Position numbers and translations under genes: made by a program
The notes under the pieces: model-generated
The model's input: the letters and a program-made list of their open reading frames with translations, nothing else
The model's database searches: none
What the model was told of the DNA's origin: nothing
Assembly (NCBI GenBank): GCA_004022145.1
Contig: RCNU01000001.1
Origin: Paecilomyces variotii
Taxonomy: Eukaryota
Reading direction: 5' to 3' (one strand)
DNA: 64,000 nt
Shown here: positions 2,241 to 6,772 of the stretch, piece by piece
How positions within the stretch are numbered: position 1 is the first letter of the stretch
Layout: each line of letters opens with the position of its first letter

Positions 2241-3974
2241 ATGGCTGCAGATCTTATCGCCGAGCACGGCCTAGAAGGCCAAGAAGACCAAGACGACCTG
2301 CGAAACTATGCAGGATCCGTCTCGGATGACGACGATGCGCAATTGCGAAACTTGGGATACAAGTCAGTTCTCGAGCGAAGCTGGGGCGCATTCGATAATT
2401 TTGCCTGTTCCTTCTCGGCTCTGTACTGCATTGGAGGTATTCGCGTGCTTTTCTACATATCGCTCAGTGCGGGCGGACCAGCTGCAATGTAGGACACCTT
2501 GTGACAGTGGAGCGAATCTAGAGTACATGAGCTAACGGACATCACTACTAACAGGTGGAGTTCTTGGGTTTCCGGAAGTATCCTCTCGATCATCACCGCA
2601 GCCACTCTTGCAGAGGCGTGCTCAGCCTACCCCGCGGCGGGGTCCATTTACTACTGGGCATTCAGATCTTGGGGAGGTGGCCGACTGGGACGTTTTGTCT
2701 CGTTTCTCGTCGCCTCTTGGACACTGGTAGCATGGACGTCCTTCCTGGCATCTGACTCCTTCGGTGTCGCCAACTACCTGGTCTCGGAGGTAGTCGTGTT
2801 TAATAAGGATACGACCTTTCCGTATGACGCTTCCGACGTCAAGGCACGAGCCGTGGCTTGGGCTTTCTCCCTGCTGTTCCTGGCTATTGCTACCTCGCTG
2901 AATTTCCTCCACCCTCGATACTACTCTTGGGTGTTCCGTGCAGGCGTCATTATTATCATTATCGATATGTTGCTGAACTTCATTTGGTTGCCCATTGGGG
3001 TGTCCAAGACGTATGGATTCCAGAGCGCGGAGTTCGTCTTCACGTCGACGTATAACGGCGGTGGCACGAGCCCTGGTCTGAACTGGGTTCTGTCGTGGTT
3101 TATGGTCTCGAGTTGCCTAGTCGGTGAAGACGCCTCTGGCCACGTCGCGGAGGAGACCGTCACTGCGAAGAAAGCTGCTGCCAAGGGCGTTTTCTGGGCA
3201 ACCGTCTCATCAGCACTCTGCGGGTTCCCAATCATTATCGTCTTTCTGTTTTGCATGCCGCCCATCGAGACGTTCTACAACACCGGCGCGCCGCAACCGT
3301 TTATCAACATGTATGCGATGGCTCTCGGTCCGCATGCGCATGTGGTCATGACTATCGTCGCCATGATAGGTGCCATTCTCAATACTTCCATCTCTATTGT
3401 CGCGGTCTCCCGACTTGTCTTTGCCATTGCACGTGATTCAGTCTTCCCCTTCAGCGATGTCCTCCGTCGAGTTTCGAAGGACAAGCAGCCTCACAACGCT
3501 GTCATCTTCATCTCGACAATTGCGGCACTATTGCTATGCACTCAGTTGCCCTCGCAAGTCGCTTTCTCCAGTCTGACATCGACTTCAGCGGCTGGTTCTA
3601 TTGCTGCGTATGGACTGGTCGGTTTCGGCCGCGCCTTCGTGACGCGGAAGACGTTCCAGCCCAACTTCTGGGATCTAGGACGATTTGGAGTCATCCTGGC
3701 TGTTGTGACGTTTCTCTGGAACGGTTTTTCCTTCGCTGTCCTGTGTTCGCCGCAGTACAGCGACAGTCAGATTGACCAAGATTCGGGTTTGTTCAACTAT
3801 GCAATCGTGATCATGGGTGGTGTTTCTGTGATTGCGATTGAGGAGTGGTGGAGAAAGTCACAGAACGATTGGTTCGGTCATCTGAACAAGGTCGAGTCCA
3901 GTTCGCAGATTACGATACAGGAAACCCAGATGGAGAAAACGAACCAACCTACTTCCGTGGCGGCTGCCGTTTAG
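2241..3974 (+). CDS. APC-superfamily permease (Uga4/Tpo5/Thi9-like), probable thiamine or thiamine-precursor transporter
   Basis: Exons 2241-2488 and 2555-3974 (intron GTAGGA..CTAACAG); LGYK..L.R, GGPAAMWSSW, AEACSAYPAAG and DASGHVAEET motifs; many hydrophobic segments; TPP aptamer downstream. Confidence 0.9.
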
Positions 3975-4120
3975 ATTCGTTTTCGGATTTTTATTATTTG
4001 GGACGCCACAAGCGATTGTGTGGATGGTGGAATACTAACTATACTAATGAGAGCCCTTACGCCAGAAAGAGGAGGAGTATATACCAGGGAGAGAAAAAAA
4101 AAGGGCAGACCTTGGCAAGG

Positions 4121-4272
4121 GTAAGTATCAGACTAGTATGCAGCATGACGGGTGTTCGAGACTTGCTTAGCATGACTCGTTCTGAGATATACCGTTGAAC
4201 TTGATCTGGATAATACCAGCGAAAGGACATGCTTCATACTTCCTCATCTTCTCTGTTCCCTTTCTTCTCTAG
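4121..4272 (+). other. Predicted 3'-UTR intron that contains the riboswitch
   Basis: Perfect donor AGG|GTAAGT at 4121; long pyrimidine tract ending in TCTAG at 4272; starts 147 nt after the stop codon; branch site not clearly canonical. Confidence 0.7.
4142..4233 (+). ncRNA. TPP (THI-box) riboswitch aptamer in the 3' region of the permease
   Basis: P1 AGCATG/CATGCT; ACGGGTG; CTGAGA; ATACCGT-TGAAC-TTGAT-CTGGATAATACCAG-CGAAAGG matches the eukaryotic TPP aptamer consensus. Confidence 0.95.
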
Positions 4273-4769
4273 TGGGCTTTAAGCTGTTGCCCAGGAGTGG
4301 TTAAGCACTCCATGTTACTAACCGGCTCTGCCAGCAGCGGAAAATGGGTCTATGACTTCTGCGCTCTGTGGTCGTCTACAAACCCATTCCCCTTCTCCCG
4401 CCTGGTACTCCGCTAACTGTATCTCGAAGAGCCCGACTGTATTATGCGCCTGAAGGTAAGTGAGTCCTTGTAGCGGCATCTTTGGCTCGTAGAGACAAGA
4501 CCAAGCCTTGTTATCGCACACAGCTCGGAAGTCATCCCGTTCCCATTCCCATTCCCGTAAACATCAAACAGAAGTCCAGTAATATCCAGCAGGTCACAAA
4601 TTCGCAGAATAATGAACATATATTTTCACTAGCGATACATGAAATTTCTAGACACCAAAGCCGGAACGTTCCCATTTGAACTCTATCAGACTCTATTAGT
4701 AAGACAAAGGGGACCTCTATTTCACACATGCGTATGTACAGTACAGATTCTCGAAGATCGACAGAGCCA

Positions 4770-4807
4770 GCTAGCTAGATGCTAGCTAGATGCTAGCTAG
4801 ATGCTAG
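4770..4807. repeat. Short tandem repeat (GCTAGCTAGAT) about x3
   Basis: Read directly, just downstream of the carboxylesterase stop codon. Confidence 0.8.
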
Positions 4808-4811
4808 AGAT

Positions 4812-6772
4812 TCACGCGGAACAAGCGCTATCATATACCTGCGGGTTAACGAATGATGCATTCGGCATATTTCCGTAACCGAGACGGATGAGGGTGTTGG
4901 CTAATAGAAATAAAAGGTCAATGTTAGTTATAACTGTCCAAAAAGAAACGACCCCCTCTCACACACAATAGCTGGAAGGATGAACTAGGAATGAACCAGA
5001 CAGCGAGCACATACCACTAGGATTAAAAACCGGCCACCCAAGCCTCTCCAACCCCTTCTGCGGATCCGCCACAAACGCAGCCCAAGCGCGTTGCATCACC
5101 CTCTTCAACTGCGTCTGGGGCTTCGATTCCGGAATCCCTGTAAAATCAGCAGAGTTGCCGAAGATCATATTCATATCGACACCATGATACGCGCCGCTAG
5201 TCGGGTAATATAGACGGGTGTTGTCCCAGTCTGCGAAATAGCGGAATCGCCAGGTAGGAACGCCTGCGCGGATGTGGTTCGTTGCTTCTTCCATTGTGGG
5301 ACAGGTGAAGGTTTGGATGTTGAAGTCTGTCCAGTCTGCTTCGCTGAGGTTGGCGCCTTGGGCGTAGGCGGCGATTTTGTAGAAGCCGGCTTCGTTGTCG
5401 TTGTGGCCGACGAGGTAGGGCTGGGTAGGTGGTTTTATTAGGTTAGTTTGTTTGTTTTCTGGATGATGCTTGCTAATGTATTGAGATTCTTTGGGGAGGG
5501 GAGGGAGGAAGGATTTACCAGATGGGCGAAGCTGCCGTTGGCAGATCGGGTCTCGTAGTCGTCAAAGATAGTCACTCCGTCTACAGTCGGTTCGAAGACG
5601 GGCTGCTTGCGAGCAACAGAAGTAGCTGGTGGTGGTTTAATCTTGCCTGCAGCTGCTAGGATATCGGCAACGCTCTTCTGTCGCATGCAAGGTAGGACAT
5701 CGCCCGAAGTGCCACAGCCGAGGAGGTTCGAGACGTTGTACCAGTTCTGAGTTGACAGCTCCTGCGAGTTGACGGGGAAGCTGAAGACAGTTCCCGAATG
5801 AGAGATCAAGCCGGCGACAATGGGATCCTTGGTATAGGCATAGGGCCAGTAACCCACGGAAGCACTACCGCATGACTGGCCGGAGATGACGATCTTGGTG
5901 GGATCACCGCCAAAAGCCCTGATGTTGTCTCTCAGCCACTCGACGGCCTTGCGCTGGTCGAGAAGACCGAGGTTCGAGGGCTGGTTAGGGATACCAGGGA
6001 AGCCGAAGATGTTCATGCGGTAATTGACGGTGACGACAATGATATCCTCGGCATCAGCGAGATACCCTCCATAGTAAAAAGATGTATCAGTGGTGCCGCT
6101 GGTCCATCCTGTTTTTTTTTTTTTTTTTCTTGGTTAGTCTTTGTTTTTGACACTTGAATGTTCAAATGGGTATCGACTTACTGCCGCCGTAGAAATGAAC
6201 CAAGACCGGTTTAGGCTTCCGGGAGCTGGTTGATTTGGTCCAAATGTTCAAACTCAAACAGTCCTCGCTCTGGGTGTTGTTATTGACCGCAGCGAATGCC
6301 TCAAAGATGCGATCGAACTGGGCAGTTTTGTTCGGATAATTTACCAACGAGGAGTGAGTGTATGGACAATCACTGTGACAAATAGTCAATATCAAGCTCG
6401 CCTATTTTAGATAATGTCGGGAAATTCTTACGCTCCCTGTAGAACGCGTTAGCAGACGGGAAAAAAAGAAAGAAAAAATATTATTTGCGCCCAGGGAATA
6501 GAAATCATATCAGAATATTACCAGTTTCAACTTACATAGTTCGCAGCCACGTAGGGTTTCCGTCCCTGATAACTCTGGGGTGCAGCAAACCGCAGATCGC
6601 CCACTGGAGGCGCCGCATAAGGAATCCCCAGATATTCAGTCACGTCAGGACTCTTCGATGCCCTGTGGCCAGTGATTGGTCCATTAGACGTTGAGACAGT
6701 GAATTCTGATACAGTCCGGGCCAAGACAGGAGCGAAGAGGCCCAGAAAGGGCAGCAGAATGTGGAGCTGCAT
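4812..6772 (-). CDS. Secreted type-B carboxylesterase/lipase (6 exons)
   Basis: Signal peptide; YLGIPYAAPPVGDLRF, SEDCLSLNIW, VTVNYRMNIFGF, FGGDP, nucleophile GQSCG, NDNE, GAYHG; exons 6772-6536, 6436-6432, 6372-6182, 6108-5519, 5420-5015, 4900-4812. Confidence 0.92.

Follow-up and report, generated by a model that had tools for sequence, protein, structure and literature searches.

A TPP riboswitch in a conserved predicted 3′-UTR intron of a THI9-like permease gene of Paecilomyces variotii

The 3′ untranslated region of a THI9-like permease gene in Paecilomyces variotii carries a TPP riboswitch within a conserved predicted intron. We propose, with a probability of roughly 0.6, that it acts as an OFF switch on the permease mRNA, in which TPP would free the 5′ splice site of this intron and splicing would expose the transcript to junction-linked decay. 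The analysis concerned a 64,000-nt stretch of contig RCNU01000001.1 (assembly GCA_004022145.1), referred to here as the window and numbered from its first letter; features lie on the plus strand unless stated otherwise. The identity of the aptamer, its position behind the stop codon, the conservation of a donor and a branch site around it and its linkage to the permease are established by sequence comparison. An initial annotation of the window had placed the aptamer in a 3′-UTR intron of a transporter gene; the intron is a predicted one, and the layout is indeed conserved in orthologues.

The Rfam scan proposed in that annotation returned RF00059 as the sole match at gathering in the 64-kb window, at 4138–4244, with 62.3 bits against a gathering score of 54.3 and an E value of 7.7e-10. 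The aptamer occupies 4142–4233, with the P1 stem formed by 4142–4147 and 4228–4233, both as originally described, and comprises a short P3, a P4/P5 arm, CTGAGA at 4182–4187 and ATAATA in L5. The RF00059 alignment contains all of the ligand-contact motifs given for TPP aptamers in the available text of PMC5882874, namely GAGAU in J3/2, GCG in J4/5 and UAAU in L5. Across 11 distinct loci (described below), 97.3% of 220 cells, representing 20 named pairs per locus, are paired, compared with 31–52% in slid controls. Double-sided base changes occur in five of the 20 named pairs, a count reached by 0 of 500 shuffles, in a test that takes its structure from the window and its sequences from related loci. 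Moreover, the aptamer is nearly invariant across the loci, while its flanks have diverged. The RF00059-class TPP aptamer is thus genuine.

The gene upstream of the aptamer starts with an ATG at 2241 and consists of exon 1 (2241–2488), a GT..AG coding-region intron (2489–2554) and exon 2 (2555–3974), which ends in a TAG stop at 3972–3974. The intron is skipped in a contig of run X1 that joins 2488 to 2555, and the joined open frame encodes 555 amino acids. The product is a THI9-like amino-acid permease of the APC family (PF13520, E 1.3e-40), with a match to TIGR00907 that stays below the cut-off of that model. Among the matches listed, the closest protein is P0001 from P. variotii (99% identical, 555 aa), and about 105 of the 120 listed homologues are at least 74% identical to the permease. 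Several of them are called ‘Thiamine transporter thi9’, an automatically assigned name that occurs on both subfamilies of the tree. In this tree (FastTree, midpoint root; 55 sequences comprising 44 proteins and 11 loci, with L007, L015 and L017 omitted as duplicates or partial; 514 columns), a distance of about 0.96 substitutions per site separates the window’s permease and its orthologues from a broad THI9-like group, and this places the window’s gene in a separate subfamily on a long branch. S. pombe Thi9 was absent among the 120 listed matches in either homologue search and hence is not in the tree. The genome also encodes a member of the broad group (L036), and no aptamer was found in the 6 kb around this paralogue. 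No 8-mer was shared by more than four of nine permease upstream regions, two of which may be near-duplicates.

A distant, basidiomycete-like homologue (L019, 43.5% identical) contains a TPP aptamer in its predicted first intron, as does L023, and this ties the permease family to thiamine. The substrate of the THI9-like permease is probably thiamine or a thiamine precursor. At 256–660, L019 keeps the first intron with its aptamer and lacks the later introns that are present in L023, as expected for an RNA contig retaining a riboswitch intron.

P1 starts at 4142, 168 nt behind the stop that ends at 3974, in agreement with the distance first reported. The 146 nt between the stop and the donor (3975–4120) form a purine-rich part of the 3′-UTR exon. 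They lead into a predicted 5′ splice site, AGG/GTAAGT, at 4121–4126, 22 nt before P1; a GTAAGT donor had already been noted at 4121. Behind the aptamer, a pyrimidine tract ending in TAG (4234–4272) is followed by the branch-site consensus TACTAAC (4316–4322) and a tandem CAGCAG (4332–4334 and 4335–4337), 12 and 15 nt after the branch site. The initial annotation had taken the tract and the AG at 4272 as the acceptor. Both the tract and its TAG are there, yet the main acceptor probably lies elsewhere: a motif scan from the aptamer to 4272 found no NCTRAC site, and the TACTAAC at 4316 with CAG 12 and 15 nt further on makes 4334 or 4337 the most likely acceptor. The predicted intron therefore more likely spans 4121–4334 or 4121–4337 (214 or 217 nt) than 4121–4272. 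A weak CTCAT at 4243–4247, the one site found by eye before 4272, would allow 4272 to serve as a minor acceptor.

Other splice-like signals are present nearby. Behind the predicted acceptor, a second branch-like site (GCTAAC at 4412) precedes AG dinucleotides at 4429 and 4431, and another strong donor, AAG/GTAAGT, follows at 4456; together, they could yield further 3′-UTR isoforms. No NCTRAC was found after 4456 up to 4700. The segment from stop to donor contains a further TACTAAC with AG behind it (4051 and 4053), together spanning 4033–4053; no clear donor precedes it, and no conservation was seen.

The position of the aptamer in orthologues was a check that had been suggested at the outset. 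Among metagenome contigs, 172 pattern matches resolved into 24 loci; L024–L027 (25–30% identity or 32-residue matches) were excluded, and the remaining 20, consisting of 17 close orthologues (79–90%) and three distant homologues (43–50%), were taken into Rfam scans. Five of the 17 orthologous loci end before or at the stop, and the other 12 extend at least 300 nt past it. In all 12 of these informative loci, the aptamer lies behind the stop on the coding strand, above gathering in 11 and at 53.5 bits in L012. Two pairs of loci are identical in the region, leaving 10 distinct loci, or 11 with the window. P1 begins 99–160 nt behind the stop in the orthologous loci and 99–169 nt behind it once the window is counted, and the stop-to-donor distance is 72–146 nt in all 11 distinct loci. 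GTRAGT is found 16–27 nt before P1 in 10 of 11 (L012 has just weaker GT sites) and RCTRAC 42–84 nt after P1 in 10 of 11, with ACTCAC in the eleventh (L009), so that each locus has a branch-like site; because the loci are related, these counts are not independent events. By chance, GTRAGT occurs in 1.25% of 35-nt stretches of the window and RCTRAC in 4.7% of 60-nt stretches. The loci represent at least four lineages besides the window, and their closest named proteins come from Penicillium (92%), Pseudogymnoascus (85–88%), Claussenomyces (84%) and Hypocenomyce (81%), genera that we take to belong to several fungal classes. Thus, the layout with its predicted 3′-UTR intron is conserved in relatives.

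The acceptor side is more variable, with the first AG after P1 ranging from +40 to +83 among the loci. Against the main reading, the first usable AG lies 20–34 nt behind the branch site in L006, L011, L012, L014 and L017, and in the last four it is AAG or GAG, weaker than that of the window. Such distant and often weak acceptors could mean slow second-step splicing. L005 and L012 are without the coding intron that is found in the window and in seven other loci covering the region; both keep the 3′-UTR cassette.

The initial annotation had also allowed for the aptamer belonging to a separate downstream transcript. The downstream gene in the window is a carboxylesterase on the opposite strand, convergent with the permease. 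Elsewhere, the downstream neighbours are a common plus-strand gene in L004 and L008 and unrelated frames in other loci; no downstream gene is common to the loci, and the upstream permease is the sole constant neighbour of the aptamer. The switch belongs to the permease, since the downstream genes change from locus to locus and the permease does not. A tblastn search of nine loci and the window gave no match to NMT1 or an NMT1 remnant downstream. If the aptamer were nonetheless part of another transcript, it could lie in the leader of a gene, or of the remnant of one, further downstream, in line with the second donor at 4456 and a short, broken open frame (4344–4457) in the window, or it could belong to the neighbouring esterase, as in the available part of the PMC11683625 supplement, where an identical aptamer is given to a ‘putative cholinesterase’, 5′ UTR. 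The esterase, however, lies on the opposite strand and ends here, which makes the aptamer antisense to its 3′ end. The short frame, considered as a remnant first exon, was dropped, as no similar motif or terminus was found among the 120 listed homologues. Together with the changing downstream genes of the orthologous loci, these points make either origin very improbable.

Within 4263–5100 on the minus strand, the esterase has an intron at 4901–5014 that is spliced in X1, and X6 shows a loose end resembling poly(A) at 4696. Given this loose end and an X1 contig reaching to 4263, esterase RNA may overlap the permease 3′ end in antisense. A short tandem repeat at 4768–4806 (GCTAGCTAGAT units) lacks 22 letters in the strain of run X2. 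Upstream of the permease, a plus-strand gene at 1086–1667 includes a 148-aa frame (1221–1667) without a Pfam match, and a transcript neighbouring this gene is spliced on the minus strand in X1 (intron 1929–1979, CT..AC).

The layout was originally described as THIC-like. The position fits this description: plant THIC (Wachter 2007 and Bocobza 2007, via the available text of PMC10226581 and PMC3597705) likewise has a 3′-UTR aptamer with a 5′ splice site upstream. The cassette itself, however, is built like fungal NMT1/THI4 leader introns. The host of the plant switch is the biosynthesis gene THIC, whereas that of the window is a fungal APC permease. Unlike in plant THIC, the window’s aptamer lies wholly within the predicted intron, and its donor, 16–27 nt from P1, leaves no room for a processing site in between. 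The 5′ strand of its P2 (ACGG) is without the AG acceptor described, in the text available, for plant and algal aptamers. With fungal type I riboswitches (N. crassa NMT1 and THI4, and the nucleoside-transporter class), the window shares the order of donor, aptamer, pyrimidine tract, branch site and AG, and its P1 is bulge-free, as in NMT1. Type I switches lie in a 5′-UTR intron with two donors and a uORF, whereas the window’s cassette lies behind the stop, with one conserved donor and no uORF output.

At least three more TPP aptamers (31–42 bits) are present in the genome, at NMT1 (L003), THI4 (L029) and L002; their long P3 stems keep them below the Rfam gathering score, and the portion of the PMC11683625 table available assigns the L002 aptamer to a nucleoside-type transporter. 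The leader riboswitches of THI4, NMT1 and the third gene show the same order of donor, aptamer and pyrimidine tract as the window. The 3′ block of the window’s aptamer is identical to theirs at 51/58 (THI4), 47/57 (NMT1) and 53/58 (third) positions, and to that of L019 at 39/57. As it is nearer to the leader aptamers than to that of L019, we infer that the 3′-UTR cassette derives from an NMT1/THI4-type intron and did not arise by relocation within the gene, a reading that five sequences can suggest but cannot prove.

The THI9/TPPsw-AA class (Moldovan 2018, as cited in PMC5997356; PMC5882874; PMC11683625) has the same PF13520 family as host. In the available parts of these sources, its aptamers lie in the 5′ UTR or an internal intron, whereas window-type aptamers lie behind the stop in 12/12 informative orthologous loci; the first-intron aptamer of L019 has the known THI9-class layout. 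Diatom and other algal TPP aptamers in the 3′ UTRs of THIC and SSSP transporter genes are similar in occupying the 3′ UTR of a thiamine-related transporter. The accounts of them available hold no splicing evidence, whereas splice signals are conserved around the window-type aptamer.

Based on these findings, we propose a plausible mechanism for the switch. At low TPP, the unliganded aptamer, probably through its P4/P5 arm, would pair with or shield the donor 22 nt upstream; the intron would stay unspliced, and the mRNA, ending short or unspliced, would be stable. At high TPP, the aptamer would close and free the donor at 4121, which would then be spliced to 4334 or 4337. In the spliced form, the 3′ end would be longer and an exon junction would lie 146 nt behind the stop, so that the mRNA would be lost faster through nonsense-mediated decay (NMD). 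As a general rule, an exon junction far behind the stop is expected to lower mRNA stability. According to the portions of these papers available, TPP unmasks a single proximal donor that is blocked by P4/P5 nucleotides without ligand in NMT1 and plant THIC (PMC3597705), and EJC-linked NMD in Neurospora can be set off by introns in the 3′ UTR (PMC7746235, citing Zhang and Sachs 2015); NMD there can also follow from a long 3′ UTR alone (PMC7746235).

Donor-to-P4/P5 duplexes of −4 to −10 kcal/mol form in the loci. This pairing is not above that of 119 background donors (median percentile 0.46, combined p 0.64); the genome’s own leader switches stand at percentiles of 0.06, 0.07 and 0.30, which makes the test a weak one. 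The 5′ arm of P4/P5 (4196–4208, ACUUGAUCUG) resembles the donor-pairing end of U1 snRNA and can therefore pair with almost any GUAAGU donor, which may account for the flat specificity tests. The donor spacer showed no locus-specific pairing, either to the aptamer as a whole (p 0.73) or to the tract (p 0.40). When the aptamer fold is enforced, the donor becomes more open in 7 of the 11 loci, strongly in L008 and L014, and slightly more closed in the other four, the window included (0.42 to 0.36). Folds repeatedly showed an outer helix that joins the purine-rich exon to the pyrimidine tract; own-locus pairing was no stronger than cross-locus pairing (permutation p 0.75) or shuffles, and for this want of locus specificity the helix was dropped as composition-driven.

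RNA data were available as Logan contigs from 4 of 24 listed public runs. No joint from 4120 is listed in any of the four, in contigs that by nature cannot show absence or RNA ends. X1 is spliced RNA with no permease differences from the window. Its permease contig ends at 4008, 34 nt behind the stop, after CA and with no loose end, and this end is a lead, and only a lead, for a proximal poly(A) site; the run has no cover at 4009–4187 and 4229–4262, a gap that proves nothing in a single study. Neither X2 nor X3 has the coding intron removed, and both resemble DNA from a different strain. Two contigs, at 4263–4900 in X1 and 4198–4551 in X6, run unspliced across the predicted acceptor and may be antisense esterase RNA or DNA. 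Because the donor-pairing, folding, outer-helix and contig results either speak against this mechanism or fall short of showing it, we infer the direction and the output of the switch by analogy with the systems cited above.

The same riboswitch with the same OFF logic could instead act through the choice of poly(A) site, the long 3′ end being destabilising in itself rather than through junction-dependent decay. The freed donor might splice out a cleavage site behind P1, as in plant THIC, or U1 might suppress a cleavage site near the stop. Such an output would have a demonstrated plant mechanism behind it (available text of PMC10226581) and would suit both the ability of long 3′ UTRs by themselves to cause NMD in Neurospora (available text of PMC7746235) and the U-rich stretch at 3987–3999. 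The gap of 16–27 nt between donor and P1, however, means that an intronic processing site would need to sit behind the aptamer, and the stretch from stop to donor holds no shared AATAAA-like signal (present in 0 of 11 loci, with TATATA in 3 of 11). We regard poly(A)-site choice as a possible but unlikely output. A decidedly slimmer chance attaches to the opposite wiring, in which TPP binding would block splicing, the spliced form would be stable and the intron-retaining long form would be broken down or kept in the nucleus. In its favour, the donor of the window is not opened by the liganded fold, P1 can extend over GTATG (4136–4140) in folds, and in A. oryzae the splicing of the thiA leader intron is inhibited by thiamine (available text of PMC10226581). 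Ligand-like folding nevertheless opens the donor in 7 of 11 loci, most strongly in L008 and L014. A junction 72–146 nt behind the stop would, moreover, be expected to lower stability, by the junction-distance rule given above and, separately, by the Neurospora findings in the available text of PMC7746235.

A conserved aptamer might also no longer control the permease by thiamine. Conserved diatom 3′-UTR TPP aptamers were unresponsive to thiamine when tested, according to the available text of 10.1101/2022.01.04.474978, and the locus-specificity and donor-pairing tests revealed no conserved expression-platform pairing. Here, in contrast to the diatoms, the aptamer is flanked by a donor and a branch site whose spacing has stayed fixed among proteins of only 75–93% identity, and we consider a loss of the response improbable. 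The OFF switch, with a donor freed by TPP and junction-linked decay, is the reading that we retain.

Published accounts, in the portions available, put the TPP riboswitches of fungi in introns of the 5′ or coding region and assign 3′-UTR control to plants (PMC5882874, PMC10226581, PMC8216456). In the available text of Mukherjee 2018 (PMC5882874), four types of fungal riboswitch action are distinguished, none of them in 3′-UTR introns; amino-acid-transporter riboswitches are described as absent from Ascomycota; and the only 3′-UTR cases named are two Postia eIF5B genes. The available part of Vargas-Junior 2024 (PMC11683625) lists a P. variotii aptamer identical to 4142–4232 as ‘putative cholinesterase, 5′ UTR, type I’ and, under ‘amino acid transporter, 5′ UTR’, a very similar aptamer of Aspergillus lentulus; all 18 amino-acid-transporter rows seen in its table are labelled 5′ UTR or intron. 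According to Donovan 2018 (PMC5997356, available text), Moldovan 2018 found riboswitches in Pezizomycotina THI9 orthologues, with the position not given. No fungal 3′-UTR-intron riboswitch was found in the titles and abstract openings of the literature on fungal TPP riboswitches, a scope that leaves most subscription journals and Moldovan 2018 outside; the literature covered, in part for each paper, includes PMC8786325, PMC12329505, PMC10226581, PMC8216456, PMC5882874, PMC11683625 and PMC5997356. The initial annotation had left it to a literature check whether the arrangement is already catalogued: the aptamer is, in the 2024 supplement, but under another gene and in a 5′ UTR. Thus, the aptamer class is known and this aptamer was previously listed but misassigned, and its position is undescribed for fungi in the literature covered; Moldovan 2018 may be relevant to the novelty of this position.

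We rate at about even odds the broader reading that the Pezizomycotina THI9-like subfamily independently evolved plant-style control. An NMT1/THI4-type intron cassette would have been captured behind the stop and kept across several fungal classes, and TPP-triggered splicing in the 3′ UTR, with NMD as its outcome, would represent a mode of fungal riboswitch action beyond the four types in print, one that escaped notice because such aptamers were entered in surveys as 5′-UTR elements or under the wrong gene. If true, this would add a regulatory type and correct two published assignments. The compact module of about 215 nt, ligand-controlled and confined to the 3′ UTR, could be used to regulate genes of industrial moulds with promoter and coding sequence untouched. 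The aptamer marks a little-studied permease subfamily as likely thiamine-related transporters, and the same aptamer cassette would have been wired twice, independently, to the control of mRNA ends.
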